Shown: positions 29,729 through 58,903 of the stretch, in pieces
How the letters are laid out: each line of letters begins with the position of its first letter
Position numbering within the stretch: the first letter of the stretch is position 1
NCBI GenBank assembly: GCA_023130975.1
Contig: JAGMAD010000003.1
Span: forward strand, 1,109-65,108
Origin: Candidatus Parcubacteria bacterium
GTDB taxonomy: Bacteria > Patescibacteriota > Minisyncoccia > Minisyncoccales > JAGMDC01
DNA: 64,000 nucleotides
Direction: 5' to 3'
Translations under genes and position numbers: made by a program
The notes under the pieces: generated by a model
What the model was told of the DNA's origin: nothing
Seen by the model: the letters and a program-made list of their open reading frames with translations, nothing else
The model's database searches: none

Positions 29729-29761
29729 AAAAAACCGCTCAGAGTTGAAGAGCGGTTTTTT
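29729..29761 (+). terminator. intrinsic terminator of hup
   Basis: aaaaaccgctc-agagttgaa-gagcggtttttt. Confidence 0.85.
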
Positions 29762-29966: not shown

Positions 29967-29968
29967 AT

Positions 29969-31367: not shown

Positions 31368-31387
31368 ATCTACTAATTACGAATTTA

Positions 31388-31435
31388 TACGAATATACGA
31401 ATAGATTTTATCTTTTTTTAATTCGTATATTCGTA
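31388..31435. promoter_or_regulatory. 15-bp-stem hairpin between kinase and response regulator
   Basis: tacgaatatacgaat ... attcgtatattcgta, perfect inverted repeat with an 18-nt loop. Confidence 0.55.
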
Positions 31436-31460
31436 AGTTATTCGTAATTCGTAGGAGCTT

Positions 31461-31841: not shown

Positions 31842-31842
31842 T

Positions 31843-33633: not shown

Positions 33634-33690
33634 GTAAATCAAAATGTCGGGTTTTAAATTCCCAGAGCCCGACATTAAACATTTTATTAA

Positions 33691-34698
33691 ATGCCAAAAG
33701 CGAAAATAAAAAAAAGGATTTTAACAGGTGACCGGCCTACCGGCCCCCTGCATCTCGGACACTATGTCGGCTCTCTGGAGAACAGAGTAAAGCTTCAGGA
33801 CAAATATGAATGCTTTTTTATTATTTCTGATTATGCATATATCACAGATCGTTTAGTTGAAACAAAAAAACTTAATAACAATGTTAAAAGTCTTGTTCTT
33901 GATTATTTATCTGTAGGCATAGATCCTAAAAAAAGCACAATTTATGTTCAGTCAAAAATACCTCAAGTTGCTGAATTGGCATTGCTATTTTCAATGATGG
34001 TAACCCTGTCTAGATTAAAAAGAAATCCAACCATCAAAGAAGAAATAAAAGATAGAGGTATCTCTAAAGTGAGTTATGGCTTTATGGGCTGGCCTATAAT
34101 CCAAGCAGCTGATATTCTTTGCGTCAGAGCAGATTTGGTGCCAGTAGGAGAAGATCAGGTTCCCCATATTGAGCAGACAAGGGAAATAGCCAGAGATTTT
34201 AATCGTATGTTTGGCAGAATTTTCCCTATACCAGAAGTATTAACAGGCAAGGTGGCACGCTTACCTGGTTTGGACGGAAGAAAAATGTCAAAAAGCTTAG
34301 GTAATGCGATTAATCTTTCTGATTCTCCAAAACAAATAAAAGAAAAAATTAACAGAGCAATAACTGATCCTAAAAGAATACACTCCTTTGACAAGGGTCA
34401 TCCGGAAATTTGTAATATATTCCAGTATTACAAAGCATTCAACAGGGAAGAGCTAAGTGAGATTAAAGAGAAATGTCAGAAAGGCAAAATTGGCTGTGTT
34501 GCCTGTAAAGAGAAAATGACTAAAGCCATAAATGAATTTTTAGAGCCAATACGGGAAAGAAGAAATTTTTATGAAAAGAAAAAAGATATTGTTAAAGAAA
34601 TTTTAAATTCTGGAAATAAAAAAACAGAAAAAGAAACAGCCAAGACATTAACATTAGTAAAAGAAAAAATGCATCTTGATTACAAATCTTTATTATAA
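33691..34698 (+). CDS. trpS: tryptophan--tRNA ligase
   Basis: GDRPTGPLHLGHYVG (HIGH), KMSKS, 335 aa. Confidence 0.95.
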   Translation: MPKAKIKKRILTGDRPTGPLHLGHYVGSLENRVKLQDKYECFFIISDYAYITDRLVETKKLNNNVKSLVLDYLSVGIDPKKSTIYVQSKIPQVAELALLFSMMVTLSRLKRNPTIKEEIKDRGISKVSYGFMGWPIIQAADILCVRADLVPVGEDQVPHIEQTREIARDFNRMFGRIFPIPEVLTGKVARLPGLDGRKMSKSLGNAINLSDSPKQIKEKINRAITDPKRIHSFDKGHPEICNIFQYYKAFNREELSEIKEKCQKGKIGCVACKEKMTKAINEFLEPIRERRNFYEKKKDIVKEILNSGNKKTEKETAKTLTLVKEKMHLDYKSLL

Positions 34699-34742
34699 AT
34701 TTTATAAATCCATTATTATCAATAACTATCGGTTGTTTATAC

Positions 34743-34804
34743 AATCCTGCGGTAAACCGCAGGATTTTTTGTTGTTGTTTCAGAGGAAATTTGCTAAATC
34801 CCCA
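34743..34804. repeat. island junction repeat R1: hairpin aatcctgcgg-taaa-ccgcaggatt + block ttgttgttgtttcagaggaaatttgctaaatcccc
   Basis: The same composite recurs at 37476-37535 and 39370-39430, with degenerate traces at ~41868-41910 and 48335-48350. Confidence 0.75.
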
Positions 34805-34863
34805 CACCAAAATTTTGGTAAGGAGGGTTTACGGCAGACATTTACCTCTTTGTTGAAAAGCTA

Positions 34864-34920
34864 TTGACAAACTTTGTTCTATTTGATAGATTGAAAATAG
34901 AACCTTTTCAATGATATATA
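34864..34920 (+). promoter_or_regulatory. sigma70-type promoter block P1 (TTGACA-N17-TAGATT with TG extension) + conserved downstream box
   Basis: ttgacaaactttgttctatttgaTAGATTgaaaatagaaccttttcaatgatatat; paralogous blocks at 37590, 39431 and 46207. Confidence 0.6.
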
Positions 34921-34964
34921 GGAAGATGGAGAGAAGGTTTGAATGAAAAAAGGGGGTGAAAAGA

Positions 34965-35126
34965 ATGGAAAAGAAAGAGAATGAAAAAGGACAAAGAGAA
35001 AGTATGCCGAGATTAGTTACAGTTGAAGAACGGAAAGGAGTTTTGGGTACCCTACAAAAGATATCTAATGACGAAGGAATTAGTTGCGTGCACTGTCCCT
35101 GCTATACATCGTGTACTCGATGCTGA
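34965..35126 (+). CDS. Cys-rich RiPP precursor peptide candidate (53 aa)
   Basis: MEKKENEKGQRESMPRLVTVEERKGVLGTLQKISNDEGISCVHCPCYTSCTRC. GGGGGTG SD-like box 5-6 nt upstream. Lies 78 nt upstream of the rSAM/SPASM gene. Below the ORF-track cutoff. Confidence 0.6.
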   Translation: MEKKENEKGQRESMPRLVTVEERKGVLGTLQKISNDEGISCVHCPCYTSCTRC

Positions 35127-35204
35127 TATCAAAGTAATAGTGGGCTTGTTAAATAATGAAAGTCCACTTATTTTTTTCTAAGAAAGAAAAAGGAGGTGAT
35201 TCTT

Positions 35205-36617
35205 ATGAAAAAATACAGAATTTCTCGTTTTGTGAAAACTTTTCAGTATAACGAGGTAGTTGCAGTATATCATTCTACCAACATGGAACTTTTGTTTTTC
35301 GATCAAATATCAGCAGAGAAAATCATCAAGCGTTTCAAACATCCCAACGATATTAAGGACCGCATTTTTCAATCCTCAAAAGGGACAACATCTCAAGATA
35401 TAATTTCCTTTCTTATTGAAAAACAGTTCCTAGTTCCTTGGGATTACGATGAGGTTCATGTCTTTCAGAAACAAGTACAGAAACTTCAAAGAGAGCGTTT
35501 TATCCGAGTGATGTATCTGATGCTTACAGATGACTGTAATTTTCAATGCACATACTGTTTTCAGAACAAAGATGAAATACAAGACCTTCAGGCAACCAGA
35601 ATGAGAAAAGATGTCTGTCAGGCAGCTATAGAACTTTTATCTCGAATGAACCAGAAATATCCTATTAATCCGAAAAGAGAGATAACTATTGAACTTTATG
35701 GCGGAGAACCCTTGTTAAACTTTCCCGCCTTAGTTGTAGCTACACTACATACAGAGTACCTTATTAAAAAAAATCGTCTACCGGTAAATACAAAACTTGC
35801 AATGGTAACTAACGGATCTTTAGTAACTCCTGAGATAGCCGAGTTTATTGCTGAACATCAAATTTCTATAGGAGTTTCTATTGATGGTCCAGGAGAGATT
35901 CACGATGTTTATCGTATTTCTAAAAATGGGAAGGGAACATCTCAACGAGCGATTGCTGCATATAGAATGCTTCAAAAAGCTGGTGCCGAAGTAGGGATAT
36001 CATGTACACTAACTCCTTTAGTAGTGGATCACTTTACAGAGATACTTGATTTCTTTGAGTACGAACTCGGATTGCAAAATGGATTAGCGTTTAACATTCT
36101 TCACTACAATCCAAAGATACCAGTAGACAAAACTTACTACAAGAAAGCCGCTGAATGTTTACTTGAGTCATTCTCACGATTTCGGGATAAAGGAATATGG
36201 GAAGAACGGATGATGAGAAAAGCACAATCATTTGCTTATCGGAAAATTATGTTTGCTGATTGTGCTGCAATTGGACACCAATTAGTTATTTCTCCTGATG
36301 GCAAGATAGGAATCTGTCCAGATTTTATCAAATCCCGTCGATTTTTTAACAATTCGGTCTTCGATAAATCTTTTGACCCCTACCAAAACAAGGACTTTCA
36401 AGAATGGTTAAGACGTTCTCCTTTGAATATGCCACAATGTTTAGATTGTGAAGCAATCGCTATCTGTGGTGGAGGTTGCCCGGCAAGTGCAGAAGCTCAC
36501 TATGGAAGTATGTGGGACGTTGATCAAAGAATCTGTCCTCATTCCAAAAAAGCATTAGAATGGCTTATTTGGGACACCTATCAGCGAGTGAAGCAACCTT
36601 TACAAAATACTACCTAA
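35205..36617 (+). CDS. radical SAM / SPASM-domain peptide maturase with N-terminal RRE(PqqD)-like extension
   Basis: AGGAGG 8 nt before the ATG. CNFQCTYC cluster, GGEPLL, C-terminal auxiliary clusters CAAIGHQ...CPDF...CLDCEAIAICGGGCPASA...CPHS. Confidence 0.85.
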   Translation: MKKYRISRFVKTFQYNEVVAVYHSTNMELLFFDQISAEKIIKRFKHPNDIKDRIFQSSKGTTSQDIISFLIEKQFLVPWDYDEVHVFQKQVQKLQRERFIRVMYLMLTDDCNFQCTYCFQNKDEIQDLQATRMRKDVCQAAIELLSRMNQKYPINPKREITIELYGGEPLLNFPALVVATLHTEYLIKKNRLPVNTKLAMVTNGSLVTPEIAEFIAEHQISIGVSIDGPGEIHDVYRISKNGKGTSQRAIAAYRMLQKAGAEVGISCTLTPLVVDHFTEILDFFEYELGLQNGLAFNILHYNPKIPVDKTYYKKAAECLLESFSRFRDKGIWEERMMRKAQSFAYRKIMFADCAAIGHQLVISPDGKIGICPDFIKSRRFFNNSVFDKSFDPYQNKDFQEWLRRSPLNMPQCLDCEAIAICGGGCPASAEAHYGSMWDVDQRICPHSKKALEWLIWDTYQRVKQPLQNTT

Positions 36618-36655
36618 TAGCTAGAATAAGATAATATTCTAGCCGTTTTTTTATA

Positions 36656-37405
36656 ATGAAGAAAGTTAAATATCATAATGTAAAATTTCTTGTTAGGTCA
36701 GCAGAAGATATTTCTGTTTATTTTGCTTTTGAAAAAGAGGCTAAAATATTTAATAGATGGTCTACTATGGAGGATTATTTTTTTAAAAAACATCCAAAGA
36801 TTAAATCATTAAAACAAACACAAGATAGAAAAACAAAAAAGGAATTTATAGAAAGATATGTGAAAGATTATTATAAGTCTCATAAAGAATTGATTGGAAA
36901 AAGAATGAAAGAAGCCGAAACGAGATGGAAAAAAGTTGAACAGAAATTTTTTTATCTCGCTGATAAATTATTTCAAAAATATCCTTGGCCTAAGGGTGAT
37001 TATAGAGCATTTGTGACAATTTGGAATATTTTTCCAAGAGATATCTCTAAGAAAACATTTCAACTTCCTTACAAAGGTAGAATTTTCAAAAAAGTTGAGG
37101 CAATTATTGTCCACGAAATGCTTCATTTTTTATTTTACGATTATCTTTTTAAGTATTTTCCTAAATATAAAAAATCCCAATATTCCTATGCTGTTTGGGT
37201 TCTTTCCGAGGCTTTTAATGAAGTAATAATGGCAGAACCAAAATGGAGAAAGATTTTTTCTTTACAACTACAACCTTATCCAGAAACCGTAATTGTAAGA
37301 AAAAAAATTAGAGAATTAAGAAAGAATAAAAAAACAGTAAAAGAAATTTTAGAAGAATTACTTCCATTTGTAATTCAAAAATATACAAGACCCCCTTCAA
37401 AATAA
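36656..37405 (+). CDS. HExxH-motif protein (putative metallopeptidase), paralog of 41187..41798
   Basis: AIIVHEMLHFLFYDY. Shares layout (W+K.E..FF ... HExxH) with the second-locus protein. Confidence 0.5.
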   Translation: MKKVKYHNVKFLVRSAEDISVYFAFEKEAKIFNRWSTMEDYFFKKHPKIKSLKQTQDRKTKKEFIERYVKDYYKSHKELIGKRMKEAETRWKKVEQKFFYLADKLFQKYPWPKGDYRAFVTIWNIFPRDISKKTFQLPYKGRIFKKVEAIIVHEMLHFLFYDYLFKYFPKYKKSQYSYAVWVLSEAFNEVIMAEPKWRKIFSLQLQPYPETVIVRKKIRELRKNKKTVKEILEELLPFVIQKYTRPPSK

Positions 37406-37475
37406 TTATTTCAGATTTCGTAATACCTTATAAGTTTCATTGACGAATCTTTAATAATTTGAAAAAGAGAAAAAC

Positions 37476-37535
37476 AATCCTGTATTGAACTGCAGGATTT
37501 TTTGTTGTTGTTTCAAAGGAAATTTGCTAAATCCC
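37476..37535. repeat. island junction repeat R2
   Basis: aatcctgtattgaactgcaggatt + ttttgttgttgtttcaaaggaaatttgctaaatcccc. Confidence 0.75.
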
Positions 37536-37589
37536 CACCCCAAATTTTGGTAGTAGGGATTTACGGCGAGCATCTATTTTCAAAATTAA

Positions 37590-37646
37590 TTGACAAAATC
37601 TATTGAGCTTGGTAAATTAAAAACAGTACCTTTTTAGCAATATAGC
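37590..37646 (+). promoter_or_regulatory. promoter block P2 (TTGACA-N17-TAAATT)
   Basis: ttgacaaaatctattgagcttggTAAATTaaaaacagtacctttttagcaatatagc; near-identical to 46207-46263. Confidence 0.6.
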
Positions 37647-37677
37647 ATTTTTTAAATTAAATATGGATTGAATGAAT

Positions 37678-37733
37678 CTCGGATAATCTAATTCGTTTAT
37701 CAAGAGTTTGGTAGATAAATTAGGCTATCCGAG
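37678..37733 (+). ncRNA. conserved 5'-leader hairpin, copy L1 (cis-regulatory RNA candidate)
   Basis: ctcggataatctaatt...aaattaggctatccgag: ~16 bp stem, ~24-nt loop. Homologs at 39503-39552 and 46295-46358. Confidence 0.55.
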
Positions 37734-37792
37734 ACACCAGAATAGCGAGAACCTTGGATTAGCCATTGAATAAAAAGGAAGTAAAAGAAAAA

Positions 37793-38395
37793 ATGAATGA
37801 CAAGAAAAAGAAGATAGTTGAAGTAGGGGCAATAGTTGCTTTATTAATGGTAGCAATGGCCAGTGTTATGGTAGCACCAGTAATAGCGGCACCAGATGGA
37901 ATTTCAGAATATGCGGTTATCTCAGGATCCTATTCGTGGCTAGGAGTACCTTATGATTATGGCGGAGAGTCGAAAAGTGGTGTTGATTGTTCTGGTCTAG
38001 TTCGTCAAGTGTATATGCGAGCAAGTGGGCGACCTGCAAGTTGTTATGACGGAACAAGAGGATGGCATGCATGCTGTTCTAAAGGAACAGGAGCATGTTA
38101 TTATGACAGAGGAGCAGAAAATATAAGAAGAGCTTCTTACCCGGTATATCCGCCAAGACCTGGTGATGCAGTAATTTTCGTTGATAAAAAGAAAGGAACA
38201 GCAACCCATGTTGGAATCTATGTAGGGGCTAGTCCCAATGGTTATTGGGACAGTTATTTTATCCATGCTGGATATGGTCCGGGGAAAGTGGTGAAAGATC
38301 GCCTTTACTATAGCTCTTACTACGGAACAGGCTGGTGGTACAGGAACTACAATATCTACTTTGCTAGATACAATCCAGATTACTGGGTATCGTAG
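37793..38395 (+). CDS. secreted NlpC/P60 (C40) family peptidoglycan endopeptidase with shared N-terminal module
   Basis: Signal MNDKKKKIVEVGAIVALLMVAMASVMVAPVIAA. GVPYDYGGESKSGVDCSGLV (catalytic Cys), ATHVGIYVG (His), FIHAG. The track start (TTG 37766) is less likely than ATG 37793. Confidence 0.8.
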   Translation: MNDKKKKIVEVGAIVALLMVAMASVMVAPVIAAPDGISEYAVISGSYSWLGVPYDYGGESKSGVDCSGLVRQVYMRASGRPASCYDGTRGWHACCSKGTGACYYDRGAENIRRASYPVYPPRPGDAVIFVDKKKGTATHVGIYVGASPNGYWDSYFIHAGYGPGKVVKDRLYYSSYYGTGWWYRNYNIYFARYNPDYWVS

Positions 38396-38442
38396 AGGAT
38401 GTAGTGAAACGAAGATAAAAGATACTCAAAACATAAAAAATT

Positions 38443-38480
38443 AAAAGGGCAGATTTCTTAATTACTGCCTTTTTTATTTT
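38443..38480. terminator. shared convergent-gene terminator hairpin (module 1)
   Basis: aaaagggcagatttcttaattactgccttttttatttt; homolog at 47017-47057. Confidence 0.65.
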
Positions 38481-38487
38481 CTTCTGA

Positions 38488-39273
38488 TTATTTTCCTTCC
38501 AAGAGTTTATTAAGGGTTTCCTCTGAGATGCGGGGACAAACAGAAGGTGAGTTTAGTTTCCATAGTTCCTTGTCTTTTATTAATTCAAAAGTAATAGTTT
38601 CCGTTTGTGTTTCAAAGTCATATTCTATAATAGAAGAATCGGTTGATGGATTGTAAAAATAATCGCAATCAAAACTTACTAATCCAGGACCGTTGCCCAT
38701 TTCCTCAATAGAGATTTTTTCTCCTGTTTCTATGTTTCTTGCTCCTTCAATAAAGCCAGATGAAATTCCCTCTTTACAAAAATATCTTACTTTAACAAAA
38801 TACTGTTCTTTTATCATAGATGGATATTCATCAATGATTTCATATTTTTTGATAACCATTTGTAAATCTGTTTCTAATATAAAATTCTCAGTACTATATT
38901 TTTCAATCGTTGTTTCTTCATCAAATCTTTTTCCAGCAATATCCGCTTTCAGAAATCTTTCAACAACTTCTCTCGGATTTAAATCTTCTGCGTAATATTC
39001 CATTTCTGCTTCGTATTTTTCTTTTAATTCAGCGATTTCCTGTTTGTGTTCTGATTCTATTGTTGCTTGATTGAATAAATCAGCCAATCTCCAATAATCC
39101 CTTATGAGCTCCTTTCTTTCGCTTTGAAGAGAGGTGAGTTTTTTTGTAATATCTTCCTTCTCCTTTTTTATGTTTGAGATTTCTCTATAACATAAACCAA
39201 CTGTCAAGGCTAAGAAGACAATGACAAAAATAAAAATCAATTTTAGATATTTTTCTTTTTTGATTTTTTCCAT
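38488..39273 (-). CDS. membrane-anchored partner protein (N-terminal TM, coiled coil, unknown C-terminal domain)
   Basis: MEKIKKEKYLKLIFIFVIVFLALTVGL... shares its first 12 codons and promoter with 47071..48261. ATG 8 nt after TAGGAT, no SD. Confidence 0.5.
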   Translation of the reverse strand: MEKIKKEKYLKLIFIFVIVFLALTVGLCYREISNIKKEKEDITKKLTSLQSERKELIRDYWRLADLFNQATIESEHKQEIAELKEKYEAEMEYYAEDLNPREVVERFLKADIAGKRFDEETTIEKYSTENFILETDLQMVIKKYEIIDEYPSMIKEQYFVKVRYFCKEGISSGFIEGARNIETGEKISIEEMGNGPGLVSFDCDYFYNPSTDSSIIEYDFETQTETITFELIKDKELWKLNSPSVCPRISEETLNKLLEGK

Positions 39274-39369
39274 ATTAATTAATCCTATCAAAGAAAAATG
39301 GTCTGGTCAAATTCAATTCGCGGACGAATTCATTACCAAATCCCTGATAATCTGAAAAAAGAAAAAGTC

Positions 39370-39430
39370 AATCCTGCGGTTTCGCCACAGGATTGATTAT
39401 TGTTGTTTCAAAGGAAATTTGCTAAATTCC
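39370..39430. repeat. island junction repeat R3
   Basis: aatcctgcggtttcgccacaggatt + gattattgttgtttcaaaggaaatttgctaaattcc. Confidence 0.75.
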
Positions 39431-39486
39431 TTGACAGGTTTTCTTGCGTTTGATAGAAAAAGGATAGAACCTTTTCAATAATATAT
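39431..39486 (+). promoter_or_regulatory. promoter block P3 (TTGACA-N17-TAGAAA)
   Basis: ttgacaggttttcttgcgtttgaTAGAAAaaggatagaaccttttcaataatatat. Confidence 0.6.
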
Positions 39487-39502
39487 GGACAGAATATAGT
39501 TA

Positions 39503-39552
39503 GGATAGCCTAATTTGTTTATCAAAAGTTTGACAAATAAATTAGGCTATCC
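39503..39552 (+). ncRNA. conserved 5'-leader hairpin, copy L2
   Basis: ggatagcctaattt-gtttatcaaaagtttgacaaat-aaattaggctatcc (14-bp perfect stem), followed by the conserved atccgttgaaNNgaaaggagga RBS block. Confidence 0.55.
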
Positions 39553-39601
39553 AAGAAGAGCAATCTTGAGATATCCGTTGAATAGAAAGGAGGAAAAAAC
39601 T

Positions 39602-39730
39602 ATGGAAATAGAGAATGAAGCCACTATGGCTAAGTTTAGCGTCTTGAAAGAAGTTCATCCCAAAGTAGAACCGATGCAATTGCATTCGATGAAATGTCAA
39701 GGCCAGTGTACCTGTCGTTGTTGTAAGTGA
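39602..39730 (+). CDS. Cys-rich RiPP precursor peptide candidate (42 aa)
   Basis: MEIENEATMAKFSVLKEVHPKVEPMQLHSMKCQGQCTCRCCK. AGGAGG 8 nt upstream. Lies 58 nt upstream of the second rSAM/SPASM gene. The track ORF 39515.. uses an unlikely TTG start. Confidence 0.65.
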   Translation: MEIENEATMAKFSVLKEVHPKVEPMQLHSMKCQGQCTCRCCK

Positions 39731-39788
39731 ATAGAGCGGAGAGTGGAATGTAGATTTTCACTCTCCTAAATTTTTAGGAGGATATGAA

Positions 39789-40802
39789 ATGAACGAATTA
39801 ATAGCATTAAAGTCTCCCCTATCTGTAAATTTTGAAGTGACACCCGTATGTGATTTGAACTGCGAATTTTGTTTCAATGCTGAAGTGGAATGCAAAAGAA
39901 TGGAGCATCCCTCATTGAATCAAGTCAAATCTATTTTACGTGCACTTGCCAAAGCAGAGGTTTTTGAAGTTAGGCTTTTTGGAGGAGAATTTTTTATCTA
40001 CCCTTATTGGAAAGAAGTGTTGGAATATGCAGATTCTCTTGGTTTTTTTCTGTCGTTTGTATCTAATGGCACACATATAAACAAAGATGTAGTAAAAAAG
40101 ATGCTATTACATAGAATAGTTTGCGGTGCTATTTCATTACATGGCAAAAAAAGTATCCATGAGAGAATAACAGGGGTGGATGGTTCGTTTGAGGCAACAC
40201 TGAAAGGCATAAAGTCCTGCATTGATTGTGGATTGGGAATTTCTATTTTATATACCTTAACGAAAGATAACCATCGATTTATTTTTGAGACCTGCGAATG
40301 GTTAAAGATGAACGGTATCAATATAGACGAAATAAATGTGGGACGCTTAACTCCTTACGGTAGAGCAAAATCTGACTGGGATAAAGCCAAACTTTCTCTT
40401 AAAGATTACTTGATTGTTTTTTCTCAGATAGAGAAAGTTAGAAAGGAATTGGATATTTTAGCCAATTTTGGCGATGCTTTTCCTTTGTGTTTATTGCCCC
40501 AGAAATATCACGATTTTGTGGTTGGTTGTTGGCAAGGTACAGGTTTTGGGCATATTGATCACATGGGAAATGTTCGTTCCTGTCCTATCGCCAAAGGGAG
40601 TTACGGTAACATTTTAGAGACTCCGCTGATTGAAATATGGACTGATCGCCTAGCTCATTTTAGATCTTTGAAGTGGTTGCCTGCCAAGTGTCGCGAGTGC
40701 GATAATTTCTGCGGTGGCGGATGTTCTGCTTCTCGTTATAATGGCGGTATGTATGCTCCGGACGAATTCATTTCACAAAATGAGGAGGTCAAAAATGAAT
40801 GA
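39789..40802 (+). CDS. radical SAM / SPASM-domain peptide maturase
   Basis: CDLNCEFC cluster, GGEFFIYP, C-terminal CWQGTGFGHID...CPIA...CRECDNFCGGGCSASR. Confidence 0.85.
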   Translation: MNELIALKSPLSVNFEVTPVCDLNCEFCFNAEVECKRMEHPSLNQVKSILRALAKAEVFEVRLFGGEFFIYPYWKEVLEYADSLGFFLSFVSNGTHINKDVVKKMLLHRIVCGAISLHGKKSIHERITGVDGSFEATLKGIKSCIDCGLGISILYTLTKDNHRFIFETCEWLKMNGINIDEINVGRLTPYGRAKSDWDKAKLSLKDYLIVFSQIEKVRKELDILANFGDAFPLCLLPQKYHDFVVGCWQGTGFGHIDHMGNVRSCPIAKGSYGNILETPLIEIWTDRLAHFRSLKWLPAKCRECDNFCGGGCSASRYNGGMYAPDEFISQNEEVKNE

Positions 40803-45537: not shown

Positions 45538-45984
45538 ATGAATAATAAAGAATTTGAAGTTTGTGTCAGGGCTATAATTCAATACCAGAACAAGATTTTA
45601 GTTTGCAAGCATAAAGAAAAAGATTATTATTTCTTTCCCGGCGGACATATTAATTTTGGTGAAAGCGCGAAAGAAACACTTTTGCGTGAGATGAAGGAAG
45701 AATTAGATTTACTGCCCGATAAATGTAAATTTATCGGTGCAGTAGAGAATTTTTTTGTTGAAGATAATGAAAATCATCATGAAATTAATTTAGTTTTTGG
45801 CACAGAGGTTGAAAAAATAAATGCCGAGAGTAAAGAAAATCATATAAGTTTTGTTTTAATGGATAGAAATCAATTTTCGCAAGAAAATATTTTACCAATT
45901 GCCTTAAAGAAAGCAATTTTAAAATGGCTAAAAGATAAAAAAATATTCTGGGCAAGCCAGATTTATAATCAATCAATTTTATAG
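45538..45984 (+). CDS. NUDIX hydrolase
   Basis: Nudix box GGHINFGESAKETLLREMKEELDL. Confidence 0.85.
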   Translation: MNNKEFEVCVRAIIQYQNKILVCKHKEKDYYFFPGGHINFGESAKETLLREMKEELDLLPDKCKFIGAVENFFVEDNENHHEINLVFGTEVEKINAESKENHISFVLMDRNQFSQENILPIALKKAILKWLKDKKIFWASQIYNQSIL

Positions 45985-45985: not shown

Positions 45986-46133
45986 GTGAAAAAGCAATAT
46001 TCTAAAAATTTAGAGAAAAAGTGGCAGAGGTTTTGGGAGAAAGAAAAAATTTACAAATTTAATCCTCAAAAAAAAGGAAAGATTTTTTCCATTGATACTC
46101 CGCCTCCTACAGTTAGTGGTAAAATGCATTTAG
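45986..46133 (+). pseudogene. valS: valS 5' fragment (first ~49 codons), displaced by cassette insertion
   Basis: GTG 1 nt after the NUDIX stop. MKKQYSKNLEKKWQRFWEKEKIYKFNPQKKGKIFSIDTPPPTVSGKMHL is identical to valS 48405.. over 118 nt, then diverges. Confidence 0.85.
46016..46133 (+). repeat. 118-bp perfect direct repeat, left copy
   Basis: aaaaagtggcagaggttttgggag...gtaaaatgcatttag, identical to 48432-48549. Confidence 0.9.
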
Positions 46134-46144
46134 ACATAGTTTCG

Positions 46145-46173
46145 AGAATATTGAGGTCAAACCTCAATATTCT
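46145..46173. repeat. palindrome agaatattgaggt-caa-acctcaatattct at the cassette junction
   Basis: 13-bp arms. Core shared with 7207-7233 and 55023-55049. Confidence 0.75.
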
Positions 46174-46206
46174 TTTATACCATAAGGACAAAAACCGAAA
46201 TCGTCA

Positions 46207-46263
46207 TTGACAAAATCTATTGGGCTTGATAGATTAGGAATAGTGTCTTTTTAACAATATAGC
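46207..46263 (+). promoter_or_regulatory. promoter block P4 (TTGACA-N17-TAGATT)
   Basis: ttgacaaaatctattgggcttgaTAGATTaggaatagtgtctttttaacaatatagc. Confidence 0.6.
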
Positions 46264-46294
46264 ATTTTTTCAATAAAATATGGATTGAATGAAT

Positions 46295-46358
46295 CTCGGA
46301 TAACTTAATTTGTTTGTCAAAATATCAAAAGTTTGGTAGATAAATTAGGCTATCCGAG
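46295..46358 (+). ncRNA. conserved 5'-leader hairpin, copy L3
   Basis: ctcggataacttaattt...taaattaggctatccgag. Confidence 0.55.
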
Positions 46359-46418
46359 AGAACAAAATAGCGAGAACCTCGGGTAGATCCGTTGAACGAA
46401 AAGGAGGAAAAAGAAAAA

Positions 46419-46973
46419 ATGAATGACAAGAAAGAGAAAATAGTTAAAGTAGGAGTAATCGTTGCTTTATTAATGGCAGCGATGGCAAGTGTATCAGTGA
46501 TGCCGATTCAGGCAGCAAACGGTCAAATAATGAACAAGCCAGTCTATGGAACATTCACGGTTAGTCAGGAATTTGGAGTATATAACCCAACATATGGATG
46601 GCATACAGGAATAGATATTGTTCCTAAATACTATTATTGGGTTTTTGCTCCCTTAGATGGCAAAATTGAAGCAACCGGCTATGACTGGAGGGCTGGCGAC
46701 TACATTGTGATTTCCCATATACCCGGTGATTCAAATCAGTATCGTGGATATTATCCTTCGGAAGTATGGACAAAATACTACCATCTAGATGGAATTTTCG
46801 TTGAACAGGGAGAACGAGTTACGCGGGGACAAGTGATTGGACATATCGGAGACACAGGTACTTGGTGCACTGGCACGCATCTTCATTTTGAAATCCGAGA
46901 AAATGGAAGATATGGAACAGCTGTGAATCCTCGAGAATATATCAGATTTGGTGACGGAAAAGATATCTGGTGA
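46419..46973 (+). CDS. secreted M23-family peptidoglycan metalloendopeptidase with shared N-terminal module
   Basis: MNDKKEKIVKVGVIVALLMAAMASVSVMPIQAA. HxxxD (WHTGIDI) and HxH (THLHFEI) Zn ligands. AGGAGG upstream. Confidence 0.85.
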   Translation: MNDKKEKIVKVGVIVALLMAAMASVSVMPIQAANGQIMNKPVYGTFTVSQEFGVYNPTYGWHTGIDIVPKYYYWVFAPLDGKIEATGYDWRAGDYIVISHIPGDSNQYRGYYPSEVWTKYYHLDGIFVEQGERVTRGQVIGHIGDTGTWCTGTHLHFEIRENGRYGTAVNPREYIRFGDGKDIW

Positions 46974-47016
46974 ACATAGAAAGATTCCTCTGGGGGTCAA
47001 AAGATTAAAAAAGATA

Positions 47017-47057
47017 AAAGGGGCAGATTCTTTAATTACTGCTCCTCTTTTTATTTT
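47017..47057. terminator. shared convergent-gene terminator hairpin (module 2)
   Basis: aaaaggggcagattctttaattactgctcctctttttatttt. Confidence 0.6.
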
Positions 47058-47070
47058 GGGCTTATTTGGT

Positions 47071-48261
47071 TTATTTAATTGTGATTATCCAAATCTCACC
47101 TCCTCGAGCGAAAGCTATGTTTTTACCGTCAGGACTCCAAGAAGGATTAAAATCATCCATTTTATCCGTAGTTAATTGTGTTTCGTTGCTTCCATCACTA
47201 TTCATTATCCAAATATCACTATTTGTTTCACCTTCGCTCCAAATATTCATACCGTTAGTGTTGTTTTTGAATAGGCTAAAAACTATCTTTTTCCCGTCAG
47301 GGCTCCAAGAAGAATCTCTAGCGTTTGCTTCAGATTCAGTCAATTTTTTTTGATTACTTCCATTACTATCCATTGTCCAGACCTGACAAGGCCCATTACA
47401 TAAATTAAAGAGTATTTTGTTACCATCAGGACTCCAAGAGCTTTTCTTTATTGTTGACCACCAAAAAAGTCTTTCATTTTCTTCTATTTTTTTTAATGGT
47501 TTTTTATTAGTTCTGTCACTATTTATTATCCAGAGATCATAAGAAAGAGTATGACCTACGCTTCCAATATGTTCAAGTTTTAATGGAGTAGCTTCAAAAA
47601 TTATTTTATTTCCATCAGGGCTCCACGAAGGATTTCTCTTACCCCTTAAATCTTTAATTAAGCGTCTTTGATTCTCTCCATCACTGTCCATAATACATAA
47701 ATCAATGGCATTATCTTCTAACGAAACATAAACTATTTTTTTACCATCAGAGGAAAAAGATGAATTGATCGCACTCTCTTCTGGCTTAGTTAACCTCTTC
47801 TGATTACTGCCATCGCTGTCCATTATCCAAAGGTTGGATTTCCTGTCCCATTCTTCGCCTTCGCCGAACCTTTTAATTCGTTCTCCTTCTCTATTAGATA
47901 CATAAACTATTGTTTTACCATCAGGACTCCAAGAAGGATCAGAATCATCTCCCTCAGGCCCTGTTAATCTTTTTTGATTGCTTCCGTCGTTATCCATTAT
48001 CCAAATATCAAAACTTCTTTTTTTGTGATGGTCATAGTCAGAGTGAGTTACGAATACTATTTTACCGCCATCAGGGCTCCAAGAAAAACCATAAACTCCT
48101 GCTCGAAGATTGGTTAATTGTTGTTCTTTAAGGTTAACTTCTTTCTTTTCTTCTGGCTTTTTAATCTCTCTAAAAAAATAGGAGCTTGATCCAAGGATAA
48201 GAGAAATTAAAATAACTCCAAAAACTAATCTTAGATATTTTTCTTTCTTGATTTTTTCCAT
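47071..48261 (-). CDS. membrane-anchored TolB-like (PD40/WD40-like) beta-propeller protein
   Basis: MEKIKKEKYLRLVFGVILISLIL anchor, then repeated SWSPDGKKIVF...DIWIMDSDGSNQKRLT units (7-8 blades). Confidence 0.8.
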   Translation of the reverse strand: MEKIKKEKYLRLVFGVILISLILGSSSYFFREIKKPEEKKEVNLKEQQLTNLRAGVYGFSWSPDGGKIVFVTHSDYDHHKKRSFDIWIMDNDGSNQKRLTGPEGDDSDPSWSPDGKTIVYVSNREGERIKRFGEGEEWDRKSNLWIMDSDGSNQKRLTKPEESAINSSFSSDGKKIVYVSLEDNAIDLCIMDSDGENQRRLIKDLRGKRNPSWSPDGNKIIFEATPLKLEHIGSVGHTLSYDLWIINSDRTNKKPLKKIEENERLFWWSTIKKSSWSPDGNKILFNLCNGPCQVWTMDSNGSNQKKLTESEANARDSSWSPDGKKIVFSLFKNNTNGMNIWSEGETNSDIWIMNSDGSNETQLTTDKMDDFNPSWSPDGKNIAFARGGEIWIITIK

Positions 48262-48404
48262 ATTAATTAACTCTATCAAAGAAAAATGGTCTGGTCAAAT
48301 TTTTATTTTTCATTACCAAATCCCCAATCATCTGAGAATGATGAAAAATTGTTGTTGCTATTTTACGATAAATCGGCTAAAATTTAATGAGACGGTCTTA
48401 ATAT

Positions 48405-50819
48405 ATGAGGAAACATTATCCAAAAAATTTGAAAAAGTGGCAGAGGTTTTGGGAGAAAGAAAAAATTTACAAATTTAATCCTCAAAAAAAAGGAAAGATT
48501 TTTTCCATTGATACTCCGCCTCCTACAGTTAGTGGTAAAATGCATTTAGGTCATGCTTTTTCTTACACTCATTTAGATATAATAGCCAGATATCAGAGAA
48601 TGAAAGGAAAAAATGTTTTTTATCCTTTTGGCACTGACGATAATGGTTTGCCAACAGAAAAATTAGTAGAAAAAGAGAATAAAGTTAGCATTTTCAATAT
48701 GAAAAGGCAGGATTTTGTAAAATTGTGCCAAAAAACCTTAAAGAGAATAAAACCTTCTTTTGTTCAGGACTGGAAAGACATTGGAATGTCTTGTGATTTT
48801 GATCTTGGTTATTCCACTATTGATAAAGAAGTTCAGAAGCTAAGCCAGAGATTTTTTATTGAACTTTATGAAAAGAAAAGAATTTACCAAAAAGAGACAC
48901 CAACTCTTTGGTGTCCTCAATGCCGAACAGCAATTGCTCAAGCAGATTTGGAGAATAAGGAAACTGAAACAGTGTTTAATGATATTATTTTTAAATTAGA
49001 AAATGGAAAAGAGATTCTCATTGCCACAACACGCCCTGAACTTTTATCAAGCTGTGTAGCAATCTTTATTCATCCGAGTGATAAAAGATATAAAAATCTT
49101 ATTGGTAAAACAGCAGTTGTTCCAATTTTTAAACAAAAAGTAAAAATTTACAATGATAAAGGTGTAGATCCTAAAAAAGGAACAGGTGTTGTAATGTGCT
49201 GCACTTTTGGAGATACAACTGATATTGAATGGTATTTTGTCCATCATTTGCCGCTTAAGATTTCAATAAATCAAGACGGAACAATGACGAAAATCGCTGG
49301 TCCTTTTCAAGGGTTAAAAATCAAAGAAGCCCGTCAGAGAATTATTGAGGAGTTAAAAAAACAAGGATTTATTCGTAGCCAGAAAAAGATAAAGCATTTT
49401 GTAAATGTTCACGAAAGATGTAATGCAGAAATTGAAATTCTTAATACATCTCAGTGGTTTATTAAGTATTTAGATTTCAAGAAAGATTTTCTGAAAATGG
49501 GCAGACAAATAGAATGGTATCCTGATTTTATGCGAAAACGTTATGAGAATTGGGTTTCAGGGCTTCGTTGGGATTGGTGCATATCACGTCAGAGATATTT
49601 TGGTATTCCTTTTCCTGTTTGGTATTGCCAGAAATGCGGTGAAATAAGGCTAGCCAGAATTTCAGATTTGCCAGTTGATCCTCTTTATTCCAAACCGAAA
49701 ACAAGATGTTCTTGCGGTAGTAATAGGTTTATTCCTGAAACAGATATTTTAGATACTTGGGCAACAAGTTCTTTAACTCCCAAAATAACCATTGATTTAG
49801 TTAAGGATGAAAAAACAAAAAAGAAACTATTTCCAATGTCTCTTCGTCCTCAAGCCCATGATATTATTAATTTTTGGCTTTTTTATACAATTGCTCGTTC
49901 AAAACTTCATTTTAATAAAATTCCCTGGAAAGAAGTAACAATTTCTGGTTTTGTTTTAGATCCTAAAGGAGAAAAAATGTCAAAGAGTAAAGGGAATGTA
50001 GTGGCGCCTCAAGAAGTAATTGAAAAGTATGGAGTTGATGTTTTAAGGCATTGGACAGCCAAAGCAAGTTTAGGTGAGGATTTACGTTGGAATGAGGAAG
50101 AAATAAAAGCAAGCAAGAGAACTGTTATCAAAATTTGGAACGCTTTTCGATTCTCCTTTATGCATTTAGAAAGCTTCAAAAAAAACAATTTAATTATTAG
50201 TAATTTAGAGGATGAAGATAGATGGATATTACATCTTCTTGAGATGACTATTAAGGATTATAAAGTTTATTTTGAAAAGTATCAATTTAAAAAAAGTAGG
50301 GAAACCATTGATAATTTCTTTTGGAAAAACTTCTGCGATAATTACTTAGAGATTGTAAAACCGAGACTTTACAATAATGATGTTTTAAAAGAATCAAAAG
50401 AAGCGGCAAAATACACTCTTTATCTTTGCCTGTTTTCTATTATTAAACTTTATGCCCCGTTTATGCCTTATATCACTGAAGAAGTTTATCAAACTTTTTT
50501 TAGAAGACTAGAAAAAGAAAAAAGCATTCATCTAACTTTACTTCCAACAATCAATCGGAATTTAGTCAATCCAAAAATTAAAGAGAAATTCGATAATGTT
50601 ATTGGAATTATTGGTGCAATCAGAAAATACAAGAGTGAAAAAAAGGTTTCAATCAGAAAAGAGGTGAATAAATTATTTATTAAAAGTAAAAATAAAGAAA
50701 TTAAAAAATACTTTAATCTTATAAAATCAGTTATGAATATAAAATCAATTAAGATGAAAGATAAAAATGTATCTGGTTATTTTGAAGTTAATTCTTCTAT
50801 AAAAATCAAAATAATATGA
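48405..50819 (+). CDS. valS: valine--tRNA ligase (intact copy)
   Basis: PPPTVSGKMHLGHAFSY (HIGH), CP1 editing domain, KMSKSKGN, 804 aa. Confidence 0.95.
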   Translation: MRKHYPKNLKKWQRFWEKEKIYKFNPQKKGKIFSIDTPPPTVSGKMHLGHAFSYTHLDIIARYQRMKGKNVFYPFGTDDNGLPTEKLVEKENKVSIFNMKRQDFVKLCQKTLKRIKPSFVQDWKDIGMSCDFDLGYSTIDKEVQKLSQRFFIELYEKKRIYQKETPTLWCPQCRTAIAQADLENKETETVFNDIIFKLENGKEILIATTRPELLSSCVAIFIHPSDKRYKNLIGKTAVVPIFKQKVKIYNDKGVDPKKGTGVVMCCTFGDTTDIEWYFVHHLPLKISINQDGTMTKIAGPFQGLKIKEARQRIIEELKKQGFIRSQKKIKHFVNVHERCNAEIEILNTSQWFIKYLDFKKDFLKMGRQIEWYPDFMRKRYENWVSGLRWDWCISRQRYFGIPFPVWYCQKCGEIRLARISDLPVDPLYSKPKTRCSCGSNRFIPETDILDTWATSSLTPKITIDLVKDEKTKKKLFPMSLRPQAHDIINFWLFYTIARSKLHFNKIPWKEVTISGFVLDPKGEKMSKSKGNVVAPQEVIEKYGVDVLRHWTAKASLGEDLRWNEEEIKASKRTVIKIWNAFRFSFMHLESFKKNNLIISNLEDEDRWILHLLEMTIKDYKVYFEKYQFKKSRETIDNFFWKNFCDNYLEIVKPRLYNNDVLKESKEAAKYTLYLCLFSIIKLYAPFMPYITEEVYQTFFRRLEKEKSIHLTLLPTINRNLVNPKIKEKFDNVIGIIGAIRKYKSEKKVSIRKEVNKLFIKSKNKEIKKYFNLIKSVMNIKSIKMKDKNVSGYFEVNSSIKIKII
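48432..48549 (+). repeat. 118-bp perfect direct repeat, right copy
   Basis: Identical to 46016-46133. Confidence 0.9.
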
Positions 50820-54835: not shown

Positions 54836-56488
54836 TTAAAGAAATTTAACCATATAAGTGTCTTTTAATTTATATCCTGCTTTGCGAAAGAAATCTCTTA
54901 CTCCAATTCCTGAGATCACAGTAATTTTAGATAGTTTAAATTTCTCTTTTGTGATTTTTTCTGCTTCTCTGATGAGTTTTTTACCAAGTCCTTTATGTTG
55001 AGCCGCCATTAAATCTATTGAGGTTGAACCTCGATAGATTGGTATCATTTGTCCATAAGTGTGAAGCTCCCTGATAATAGCAGAATTTTTTAAAGCCAAA
55101 ATAGAATACCGAGACCCGACCCCGGGTCTGGGAGCCCGAGGTCGGGTCTCGGTGCTACTTTGAAGGGGGATACGGAGACGTAATAAACTATAAAGTTTTG
55201 TTCTGTTTTTATTTTCAAAACTCAAAAATATTTCTTTGCTATTTGACGCTTCATAGTCCTGGCTGAATAAATAGATTTTTTCTTTTGGATTGTATTTTTC
55301 TTTTACTTCTCTACATCTTATACAATGACAGGTTGAGCCTCTTTTCTTCATCTCTTTTTGAACCACTTGTCTTAGATTAGAAATTTTACTGCCAGATTCA
55401 ATATGATAAGCAGGTATGTCTCTAAATAATCGAGCTGTCCGAACCCAATATGGCAATATTTCTTTTATTTGAATTAAAAGATTGATTAACTGTTTATCAG
55501 AATACGACTTATACTTACCTTGCTTCCAAAGTTGGTAAAGTTTTGTATTTTTACAAACAACACAAGGATAAATTTTTAACCAGTCCGGCTTGAAATCCGG
55601 ATTCTGAAAAATTTCTTTAAGAGATGAAAAGTCCTTTTTTGGATTAGAGCCAGGCAAATTTGGCATTATTTGATACATTATTTTAAACCCGGTCTCTTTT
55701 AAGAGCTTCGTTGCCTTTATAGTTTCTTTTACAGAATGGCCTCTCTGGCATTTTTCTAAAATGTTATCGTATGTGGTCTGTACTCCCAATTCTACCATTG
55801 TTATTCCCAACTTTCTTAAATTAAGAATTTCCTTCTCATTAATTAAATCAGGTCTTGTTTCTATGCTTATTCCAACAATCCTATGTTTTGCTTTTTCGTT
55901 CTTCTTTTGCTCTTTTTCTAAAGATTTAATTTTTCGCGTAGTTTTGCGTTCATTTTCGCGTTGTTCTGCGTTACACGCTGCGAAGCAGCGTGTAATAAAC
56001 CAAGATTGGTATTTCTTTGGATAGGCAGTCCAGCTTCCACCGATTATTCTCAATTCAATTTTATCTGTTGGATGGCCTTGAATTTCCAAACTTCTAATTC
56101 TGTCTATAACTTGAAGATATGGATTAAATTTGTTTCTTTTTGCTCTTTCTACTGCTGGTTCTCCAGAAAGATAGCTTTTGGGCAGGCCTTTTTCTTGAGG
56201 GCAATAAATACATTTTCCCGGACAGGGATAGGACTTAGTTAAAACCGAGACCACTACTACTCCAGACAAACTCCTAATTTTTCTTTTTCTCAAGAGTTCT
56301 TCTAAAATTTCGTTCTTTTTGAGCCCTTTATTTTTTACTAAATTATGGTATGCTTTAAGTAGTTCAACATTAGAAGGACAGGAAATTTTGTATCTCTTGG
56401 CTATTTTTCTTTTAATCACAGCCAAGCCCTCCAAAGTTTTAACTTTATTTCTTAGCAGTTTTTTGATTATTAATTTCTCGATCTCCAT
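54836..56488 (-). CDS. elp3: Elp3-type radical SAM + GNAT tRNA-modification enzyme
   Basis: CPGKCIYCP rSAM cluster, TRPD, C-terminal GNAT (QHKGLGKKLI); 550 aa with palindromic in-frame insertions. Confidence 0.9.
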   Translation of the reverse strand: MEIEKLIIKKLLRNKVKTLEGLAVIKRKIAKRYKISCPSNVELLKAYHNLVKNKGLKKNEILEELLRKRKIRSLSGVVVVSVLTKSYPCPGKCIYCPQEKGLPKSYLSGEPAVERAKRNKFNPYLQVIDRIRSLEIQGHPTDKIELRIIGGSWTAYPKKYQSWFITRCFAACNAEQRENERKTTRKIKSLEKEQKKNEKAKHRIVGISIETRPDLINEKEILNLRKLGITMVELGVQTTYDNILEKCQRGHSVKETIKATKLLKETGFKIMYQIMPNLPGSNPKKDFSSLKEIFQNPDFKPDWLKIYPCVVCKNTKLYQLWKQGKYKSYSDKQLINLLIQIKEILPYWVRTARLFRDIPAYHIESGSKISNLRQVVQKEMKKRGSTCHCIRCREVKEKYNPKEKIYLFSQDYEASNSKEIFLSFENKNRTKLYSLLRLRIPLQSSTETRPRAPRPGVGSRYSILALKNSAIIRELHTYGQMIPIYRGSTSIDLMAAQHKGLGKKLIREAEKITKEKFKLSKITVISGIGVRDFFRKAGYKLKDTYMVKFL

Positions 56489-58243: not shown

Positions 58244-58534
58244 CCCCCCACCACTTTTTATGTTTTATGTATATCTTTTGAAAAGCAAAAAAGATAAAAA
58301 GTTTTATATTGGATTAACCTCGAATCTAAAAAGAAGATTTAAAGAACATAATAATGGGTATACAAGATCTACAAAGGGCAGAAGGCCATTTGATATAATA
58401 TACTATGAGGCATATCTAAATTTTGAAGATGCGAAAACAAGAGAATCAAGATTAAAGAAATTCAAGAATTCATATACAGAGTTAAAAAAGAGAATACCCC
58501 GTAGCTTAAAAGAAGTATAAAAAGTGGTGGGGGG
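58244..58534. mobile_element. single-gene GIY-YIG cassette bounded by 16-bp perfect inverted repeats
   Basis: ccccccaccacttttt (58244-58259) abuts the ATG. aaaaagtggtgggggg (58519-58534) overlaps the TAA. Confidence 0.55.
58260..58520 (+). CDS. GIY-YIG nuclease family protein (86 aa)
   Basis: FYVYLLKSKKDKKFYIGLTSNLKRRFKEHNNG. Confidence 0.85.
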   Translation: MFYVYLLKSKKDKKFYIGLTSNLKRRFKEHNNGYTRSTKGRRPFDIIYYEAYLNFEDAKTRESRLKKFKNSYTELKKRIPRSLKEV

Positions 58535-58630
58535 AAAGGTCGAAAAAGTAGATATTAGATTTTTGATGTTGGATAATAGAAATTAAATCTAATATCTATA
58601 ATCTATTATCTAATATCTAATTCTAAATTT

Positions 58631-58903
58631 ATGCCAGAAAATAATCCTCCAGAAGAAGGAAAATTAATAGGGAAAATTAGTCATTATTTTGGAAATATTG
58701 CTGTAGCGGTAATTGAATTATCTGGTCCTCTTAAAGTAGGAGATGAAATTAGAATTGTCGGCGGCGAAGAAACTGATTTTAATCAGACCGTTGATTCGAT
58801 GGAATTTGAACATAAAAAAATTGATAAAGCGAAAAAAGGAGATAGTATTGGACTGAAAGTAAATGAGAAAATCAGGGAGGGCTATAAAGTATATAAAGTT
58901 TAA
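58631..58903 (+). CDS. translation-elongation-factor domain-2-like small beta-barrel protein
   Basis: GKISHYFGNIAVAVIELSGPLKVGDEIRIVG...KGDSIGLKV. Confidence 0.55.
   Translation: MPENNPPEEGKLIGKISHYFGNIAVAVIELSGPLKVGDEIRIVGGEETDFNQTVDSMEFEHKKIDKAKKGDSIGLKVNEKIREGYKVYKV

Follow-up and report, generated by a model that had tools for sequence, protein, structure and literature searches.

The valS 5' end duplicated around a two-gene island in a Parcubacterium: a candidate insertion with long target duplication

Introduction

In the genome of a Candidatus Parcubacteria bacterium (GCA_023130975.1, contig JAGMAD010000003.1), two genes encoding an M23 metallopeptidase and a PD40 (TolB-like) beta-propeller lie inside the 5' end of valS, the essential gene of valyl-tRNA synthetase (ValRS), and an intact valS follows behind them. 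The arrangement was analyzed within a stretch of 64,000 nt (positions 1,109 to 65,108 of the contig, forward strand), hereafter called the window, to which all coordinates refer. The locus raises the question of how such a module could enter an essential gene, and whether an element that targets the 5' ends of essential genes was responsible, as an initial annotation had suggested with the dusA-targeting integrative elements as precedent. Our analysis does not support such an element. With slightly better than even confidence, we favor a one-time and fairly recent event of duplicative recombination, by which the M23/PD40 module was placed in valS. Published cases of this type go under the name 'insertion with long target duplication'.

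Structure of the valS locus

A direct repeat of 119 nt, found with 100% identity by both a repeat search and self-BLAST, occupies positions 46015-46133 and 48431-48549 at a spacing of 2416 nt, and its two copies enclose 2,297 nt. A chance origin is ruled out, since the repeat is perfect over 119 nt within 64 kb. The initial annotation had listed a perfect repeat of 118 bp, which is real but one base longer than given there. The features at the two ends of the island are as follows.

45538-45984, plus strand: NUDIX hydrolase gene, the conserved left neighbor of valS (Pfam NUDIX, E=2.8e-13; 79% identical to the NUDIX of the relative L083, introduced below)
45986-46210, plus strand: dead valS 5' stub, taken from the list of open reading frames (ORFs), with 49 ValRS codons followed by 25 out-of-context codons and a stop
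46015-46133, no strand: left repeat copy, valS codons ~11-49
46134-46205, plus strand: unique left-end segment of the insert, 72 nt, with a 14-bp perfect hairpin at 46144-46173 followed by UUCUUUUAU
48349-48404, plus strand: unique 56-nt segment now 5' of valS, with a promoter-like site TTGCTA-17-TAAAAT at 48355-48383 (promoter scan)
48405-48430, plus strand: valS start MRKHYPKNL, apparently heterologous and diverged from the ancestral start (DNA alignment, N-terminal comparison)
48431-48549, no strand: right repeat copy
48405-50819, plus strand: intact valS, 804 aa (GenBank MCK4453885.1; Pfam tRNA-synt_1, E=2.4e-92, positions 1-413 of 414; Anticodon_1)

On the left side, the NUDIX ORF ends with a TAG stop at 45982-45984, and the GTG of the stub follows at 45986, 1 nt beyond the stop, in a compact TAG-C-GTG junction without a Shine-Dalgarno sequence. 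Residues 12-49 of the stub match positions 1-40 of the tRNA-synt_1 profile, and its reading frame is broken inside the HIGH motif (GKMHL, then DIVSR...). Directly 3' of the left repeat, from 46134, the island begins with GACATAGTTTCG; directly 3' of the right repeat, valS continues with GGTCATGC. Two proposals of the initial annotation were thereby borne out, namely that DNA was inserted at approximately codon 50 of valS and that the downstream copy runs into a complete ValRS, the latter by the tRNA-synt_1 match over 1-413/414 and the anticodon-binding domain.

Immediately 5' of each repeat copy lie approximately 33 nt that are homologous yet diverged, reading GTGAAAAAGCAATATTCTAAAAATTTAGAG on the left and ATGAGGAAACATTATCCAAAAAATTT, a 3-nt gap and G on the right. 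The start of the left copy encodes MKKQYSKNLEKK and that of the right copy MRKHYPKNLKK. Divergence changes in a single step, from 8 substitutions and a 3-nt indel (one codon) in 33 nt (~25%) to 0 in 119 nt. The downstream copy does bring a replacement valS start and a new upstream region, as had been annotated, and the latter contains the promoter-like site listed above. With regards to expression, valS would be uncoupled from the NUDIX operon and driven from the site at 48355-48383 with a leader of ~15 nt.

The hairpin in the left-end segment has the core TATTGAGGTcaaACCTCAATA and a predicted RNA fold of -17.7 kcal/mol (z=-5.7). It begins 11 nt inside the left junction, exactly where a palindrome had been pointed out beforehand. 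Together with the U-run behind it, the hairpin is probably an intrinsic terminator that halts read-through from NUDIX and the stub, so that this transcription probably ends at 46144-46173.

Polarity of the duplication and origin of the present valS start

The closest syntenic relative is the JGI metagenome contig Ga0209636_10028978 (L083), which has the order NUDIX...valS-response regulator-MurE, with identities of 79% for NUDIX, 75% for ValRS, 82% for the response regulator, and 82% for the MurE-like protein. Its valS is uninterrupted, has a single copy of the 5' end, and starts with MKKQYSKNLEKK, the type of the left copy. The first 36 nt of the stub are identical to the L083 start at 33 positions (33/36), and the right copy differs from that start by 7 substitutions and a codon deletion. 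Because the relative's valS is uninterrupted and has the left-type start, it follows that the stub preserves the 5' end passed on by vertical descent, that the start used by valS today arrived later, and that the insert is a derived state. The upstream copy had been regarded as probably the ancestral context from the outset, and the comparison with L083 supports this view.

The part of ValRS that contains its first 11 residues varies strongly from one ValRS sequence to the next. Three distinctive bases of the right start (the TTATCCAAAAAA stretch) are common to the more distant lineage of the metagenomic relatives L084 and L085, which argues for a natural foreign allele rather than mutation after the event. 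Divergence of the first 33 nt after the duplication was rejected as an explanation, as 8 substitutions and an indel would stand against 0 changes in 2 x 119 nt. In addition, L084 has the states of the right copy at three of these positions. Over the 119-nt block itself, the window is ~88% identical to L083 and differs by ~12%, as counted by hand from the alignment.

Close relatives were scarce. Among GTDB species representatives, nothing nearer than 53% ValRS identity was found, and the nearest ValRS sequences in JGI metagenomes reached 75% (L083) and 71% (L084, L085). In clusters at 90% identity, ValRS, M23, and PD40 each had one member.

Assembly support

All assemblies are short-read metagenomic assemblies from one study. 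The whole window is 100% identical to positions 15022-79021 of DAOVOQ010000001.1 (GCA_030629575.1), a metagenome-assembled genome (MAG) of a Candidatus Parcubacteria bacterium, and the arrangement recurred with 100% identity in separately assembled contigs from at least five samples (SAMN18200500, -01, -02, -03, and -06) as well as in Logan contigs. Long contigs from at least four samples all resolve the integrated path. Of the Logan contigs, L166 is the island flanked at both ends by 30 nt of repeat, whereas L165 ends 55 nt into the right repeat; such breaks at a repeat are ordinary de Bruijn behavior and do not discriminate between arrangements. A further Logan contig, L174 (SRR13892597), shows 5 mismatches and 2 gaps in 7 kb relative to window positions 30600-37637. 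The contigs of the valS region were all 100% identical, and minor strain variation is present elsewhere in the population.

Proposed course of the insertion

The incoming DNA would have been the module, with a valS-like start of another lineage at its end. On the right, this DNA would have been resolved by homology at approximately nt 33 of valS, and on the left it would have been joined illegitimately at nt 148, with host valS nt 30-148 copied twice from one template, either through a template switch during replication or through a join between sister chromosomes. Both repeat copies must derive from one template, since divergence switches from ~25% to 0/119, while L083 differs by ~12% in these 119 nt. 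One crossover between the host and a diverged foreign homologue was rejected as an explanation, since the repeat copies come out non-identical when the Holliday-junction products are reasoned through by hand. Three outcomes would follow: an inert 49-codon stub still joined to NUDIX, with the terminator-like hairpin after it; a module driven by its own promoters; and a full-length valS with 11 altered N-terminal residues and a new promoter-like site at the right edge of the island. No targeting machinery is needed to explain this architecture, because valS is essential and a cell would have survived only if the 5' end was regenerated. The 119-nt perfect repeats could also permit loop-out by homologous recombination, which would restore the ancestral NUDIX-valS arrangement.

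Several observations weigh against this course of events. The short-read graph fits the integrated form and a circle plus empty site equally well. No same-species empty site was found in the collections searched, which held no genome above 75% ValRS identity. In the comparison of relatives suggested in the initial annotation, L083 has an uninterrupted valS of the left type, but it shares only 75% ValRS identity and has an upstream insert of its own. No donor of the MRKHYPKNL start appeared either, as the N-terminal 186 aa of the right copy matched only ValRS fragments at 68% or below, none of them with HYPKNL-KKWQ; the donors of this start and of the 56-nt segment were not found, so the homologous join on the right is a proposal. 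The different cargo of L083 at the same NUDIX/valS boundary indicates a possible site preference, which an accidental event does not predict. Finally, the published class was defined from restriction-modification cargo and is itself mechanistically unexplained (PMC2853133).

The L083 insert in question is a 2-kb segment between NUDIX and valS (480-2280) encoding a methyltransferase, a putative restriction enzyme, and a 71-aa zinc-ribbon ORF. It showed no valS duplication and no flanking repeat.

Cargo of the island and its resident counterpart

Between the two unique end segments, the island is composed of the following parts.

46206-46418, plus strand: promoter-like site (TTGACA-17-TAGATT at 46207-46235) and long leader hairpin (46294-46359) 5' of the M23 gene
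46419-46973, plus strand: M23 metallopeptidase, 184 aa, MCK4453883.1 (Pfam Peptidase_M23, E=1.1e-20), with an N-terminal signal-peptide-like segment
46997-47057, no strand: putative shared terminator region of the M23 and PD40 genes, 82% identical to 38426-38480
47071-48261, minus strand: PD40 (TolB-like) beta-propeller, 396 aa, MCK4453884.1 (Pfam PD40, E=1.2e-46), with an N-terminal membrane anchor
48192-48348, minus strand: start of the PD40 gene with its upstream region, 78% identical to 39205-39366

The two genes are convergent. The term 'lytic-enzyme module' used in the initial annotation suits the M23 peptidase, which is of the lytic type, but not the second gene, which encodes a membrane-anchored PD40/TolB-like beta-propeller. 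In the promoter scan, the promoter-like site of the M23 gene scored 10/12 matches, with a TG. Its leader folds at -32.2 kcal/mol (z=-4.2), and the Rfam search over the window returned only tRNAs and no known RNA family for this hairpin. The fold of 46997-47057 was only weakly better than those of shuffled sequences.

A two-gene module resembling the island resides ~7 kb upstream (self-BLAST; Pfam NLPC_P60).

37589-39366, no strand: resident module with, in order, a secreted NlpC/P60 protein (37793-38395, plus strand), a putative terminator, and a membrane-anchored 261-aa protein (38488-39273, minus strand)

Island positions 46206-46492, covering promoter, leader, and signal peptide, are 84% identical to 37589-37866 by self-BLAST, and the resident inter-gene terminator at 38426-38480 is the counterpart of 46997-47057. 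Altogether, the non-payload frame of the island (promoter, leader, signal peptide, terminator, and divergent promoter) is 78-84% identical to the resident module, whereas the payload domains are unrelated, with NlpC/P60 and a 261-aa membrane protein in one and M23 and a PD40 propeller in the other. The two modules look as though secreted cell-wall hydrolases had been exchanged like cassettes behind a shared N-terminal and regulatory frame.

GC content and GC content at third codon positions (GC3) were 0.41/0.32 for M23 and 0.35/0.26 for PD40, with window means of 0.335/0.262, and the resident NlpC/P60 gene has higher values than M23. A compositionally foreign island was therefore rejected, as both genes lie within the range of the genome. 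The island looks home-grown, since its frame is paralogous to the resident module, its hairpin family was seen in this genome only, and its GC and GC3 are native.

The promoter of the M23 gene is one of four copies in the window (TTGACA-17-(T)GATAGATT-like; 34860-34965, 37589-37792, 39430-39602, and 46206-46418), and in an alignment of the four, the M23/PD40 pair belongs to a set of four transcription units sharing promoter and leader. Three of the four copies have a leader hairpin of ~27 bp (-32 kcal/mol, z=-4.2; no Rfam match). The copies precede M23, NlpC/P60, and two Cys-rich small peptides, and each of the peptide genes is followed by a radical-SAM/SPASM gene, resembling operons for ribosomally synthesized and post-translationally modified peptides (~34966-36617 and 39603-40802). 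The set may represent a lineage-specific regulon or cis-regulatory RNA.

Three of the four copies are preceded by an intergenic element, here called R (34742-34802, 37474-37535, and 39369-39430), in which TTTGTTGTTGTTTCAAAGGAAATTTGCTAAAT comes after a GC-rich hairpin, CAATCCTGCGG...CCGCAGGATT. Two R copies bracket the resident module as direct repeats of 79% identity (37436-37535 and 39329-39430). The 56-nt segment now 5' of valS (48349-48404) is not significantly similar to R or to the sequences that precede valS in relatives; a resemblance to the L084 valS upstream region and to R was considered and rejected, as it scored no better than shuffled sequence.

The hairpin at the left end of the island belongs to a palindrome family of the form TATTGAGGT-N3-ACCTCAATA, and the window contains 6 occurrences of TATTGAGGT where 0.59 would be expected. 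There are three palindrome sites (7205-7235, 46144-46173, and 55012-55040), and the family was not found in 2.1 Mb of relatives' loci. The first site lies downstream of ftsW and has an extra third half-site; the last lies within the coding sequence for a 550-aa radical-SAM protein, ~60 codons short of the stop. A role of the palindrome as a recombination or att site was rejected, since it occurs at two further unrelated places in the genome and a U-run follows the island copy. A terminator or operator is more likely.

Search for mobility genes and further copies

No integrase, transposase, or recombinase family was found among the called genes of the window from ~5.8 to 61 kb (~55 kb), in agreement with the initial annotation, which had seen neither an integrase nor a recombinase. 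Neither M23 nor PD40 occurred near valS in any of 172 related loci. No PD40 homologue of more than 38% identity existed among 5.8 billion clustered proteins. The M23 family comprised twelve members at 48-60% identity in unrelated neighborhoods (ribosomal protein or hypothetical genes), and these loci contained no PD40, valS, or flanking repeats. In viral contigs, only generic M23 at 33-35% was detected, with no palindrome copy and no close relative. A second copy of the island was not found in any public collection searched.

The idea of a dusA-like element directed at an essential gene's 5' end was thus not supported: the arrangement is a single instance, lacks a recombinase, has a native frame and GC, and places a perfect repeat beside a block of ~25% divergence. 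The insert does not look like a self-mobile element, at least not like a recognizable one. The window also encodes a PilB/T2SSE-type ATPase and pilin-like proteins, which would be compatible with DNA uptake.

Alternative explanations

An unlikely competitor is a Campbell-type, RecA-dependent integration, in which a 2.4-kb circle composed of the module and a 150-nt valS 5' segment entered by one crossover within the 119 nt of identity, with later loop-out possible. Repeat-unique-repeat is the exact product of a single crossover between circle and chromosome, 119 nt of perfect identity is probably a sufficient RecA substrate, and the contig ends of L166 and L165 leave the short-read graph equally compatible with circle plus empty site. 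However, the valS segment of the circle must equal that of the host over 119 nt yet differ by ~25% over the adjacent 33 nt, and a foreign homologue would not provide this in view of the ~12% divergence to L083 over the same 119 nt. Moreover, the insert has no replication or transfer function by which a circle could be maintained or delivered, and the long contigs from at least four samples all show the integrated path.

Quite unlikely, in our view, is an integrase-less integrative element of the cis-mobilizable element (CIME) or mobilizable-island type, which would use the valS 5' end as attachment site and a recombinase encoded elsewhere in the genome or by a helper. As in the dusA islands (PMC4482086), island-borne sequence has replaced the 5' end of the gene, and a remnant of the earlier one persists. 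The beginning of the right copy looks like the allele of another lineage, L083 has a different (restriction-modification) cargo at the NUDIX/valS boundary, and a palindrome lies 11 nt within the left junction. Against such an element, the ~55 kb of annotated genes contain no recombinase, and the arrangement is a single instance across all collections searched. A 119-nt perfect repeat with a ~25% diverged block is unlike att arms, which in dusA are 21-bp, semiconserved, and imperfect, and which, as independently evolving attP/attB homologues, would differ throughout. The L083 insert has neither a valS duplication nor a flanking repeat, the palindrome occurs at two unrelated genome sites with a terminator-like U-run after the island copy, and the island frame is paralogous to the resident module.

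Alternatively, and as something of a long shot, the NUDIX/valS 5' boundary could be a hotspot of the clade, at which integrase-less cassettes are exchanged via portable valS 5' homology as a 'landing pad', by RecA-dependent insertion and loop-out, with the essential gene keeping the site. The M23/PD40 pair and the L083 restriction-modification system would then be a first glimpse of such exchange, and the 119-nt repeats would keep the island excisable.

Very improbable is the reverse polarity, with module-valS as the ancestral order and the 148-nt stub after NUDIX as a fragment inserted later. The TAG-C-GTG junction without a Shine-Dalgarno sequence and the non-adjacent NUDIX and valS in L083 would agree with it. 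Yet the stub start is of the type found in the closest syntenic relative (33/36 nt), with the functional copy as the odd one out, and no relative has M23 or PD40 upstream of valS. A stub that starts exactly at the start codon, 1 nt past the stop of an intact NUDIX gene, has the appearance of a compact operon junction of long standing and not of a fragment inserted at random.

The least credible alternative is an assembly artefact, in which the duplication or the path through the repeat was made by the assembler from strain mixtures: all evidence does come from short-read assemblies of one study, in which the repeat is a branching de Bruijn node at which L165 and L166 break, but the junctions 46133/46134 and 48404-48431 are unique sequences that must exist in reads, the four junctions need two copies of the 119-mer, in one chromosome or in chromosome plus circle, and identical contigs came from at least five samples and the GenBank MAG. 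As the junctions demand two copies, the physical linkage of the valS 5' segment and the module is real either way, and an artefact could at most turn 'integrated' into 'circle plus empty site'.

Further observations in the window

Three features away from valS were noted. At ~58260-58903, an 86-aa GIY-YIG/T5orf172 ORF precedes a 90-aa ORF whose sole match in precomputed Pfam results is EF-Tu domain 2; this may be a homing-endonuclease-like gene beside a fragment of another essential gene. The gyrA gene (7308-11237, 1,309 aa) contains an intein, with a Pfam Intein_splicing match between two DNA_topoisoIV matches. Positions 24046-24177 and 29758-29895 form a repeat of ~135 nt with 74% identity, adjoining two tRNA clusters (24178-24339 and 29896-30039).

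Implications and comparison with known systems

If insertion with long target duplication is the correct reading, accessory genes can enter a compact, recombinase-poor genome of the Candidate Phyla Radiation (CPR) without mobile-element machinery, and the locus would be a clean natural example. Selection on the essential gene would have shaped the look of the accident by forcing the regeneration of the 5' end, and the perfect repeats would predict a reversible state, in which loop-out brings back a NUDIX-coupled valS. Long target duplication would be extended past restriction-modification cargo and past cultured, mostly competent bacteria. The case would also be a warning that the duplication of a gene end around an island is insufficient evidence for a site-specific integrative element.

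The features of IS200/IS605-like and of repetitive extragenic palindromic (REP)/palindrome-associated transposable element (PATE) systems do not describe the locus, as the hairpin is at the left end only and the annotated genes include no transposase family; such elements are not known to create long duplications. With CIMEs and mobilizable genomic islands (MGIs), the locus shares a small island within direct repeats that lacks recombination or transfer genes. CIMEs and MGIs are recognized through a related integrase-bearing element using the same att site; here, in contrast, no integrase-bearing relative and no recurrence at the site were found.

Homology-facilitated illegitimate recombination (HFIR) in natural transformation or conjugation (PMC3240628) combines one homologous anchor with one illegitimate join. 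The likeness lies in the gain of foreign DNA with one homologous anchor, here valS, and an illegitimate join, again without mobility genes. HFIR normally deletes or replaces the recipient DNA between anchor and join, and it has reportedly been invoked for the displacement of cassettes in Vibrio type VI secretion system effector arrays, where remnants are left behind. The present locus differs in that recipient DNA was duplicated, which needs two templates or a template switch.

Islands and prophages at dusA carry a tyrosine integrase beside the junction and a 21-bp semiconserved att core, and recur across more than 200 genomes, with excision demonstrated (Farrugia 2015, NAR 43:4547, PMC4482086). 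Like them, the valS island is inserted at the 5' end of a housekeeping gene, supplies that end, and leaves the original as a remnant. Integrase, short imperfect att core, and recurrence at the site were tested here, and none was present.

The closest match is insertion with long target duplication (Nobusato 2000, Gene 259:99; Furuta, Abe & Kobayashi 2010, NAR 38:2428, PMC2853133). The screen of Furuta and colleagues considered direct repeats of >30 bp, a single copy of the repeated sequence in a genome free of the insert, inserts of <20 kb, no other mobile-element genes, and restriction-modification cargo (PMC2853133). The valS locus has a repeat of 119 nt and an insert of 2,297 nt with two genes and no mobility genes; for the single-copy target, the nearest comparison is L083, which belongs to another species; its cargo is not of the restriction-modification kind, which was a criterion of the screen and not of the rearrangement type. 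In both, a gene block of a few kb lies between long (30-400+ bp), near-perfect direct target repeats without integrase or transposase, the repeat spans the start of the target gene, which is left intact, and each repeat resembles its partner more closely than it does the other genome. The differences concern the cargo (M23 and PD40 instead of restriction-modification), the host (a Parcubacterium), the target (an essential aminoacyl-tRNA synthetase gene, hit 148 nt into its coding region), and the ~33-nt heterologous start on the regenerated copy, which is not described in published cases. Our best reading is therefore that the locus adds cargo other than restriction-modification, a CPR host, and an essential-gene target to what is known of insertion with long target duplication.

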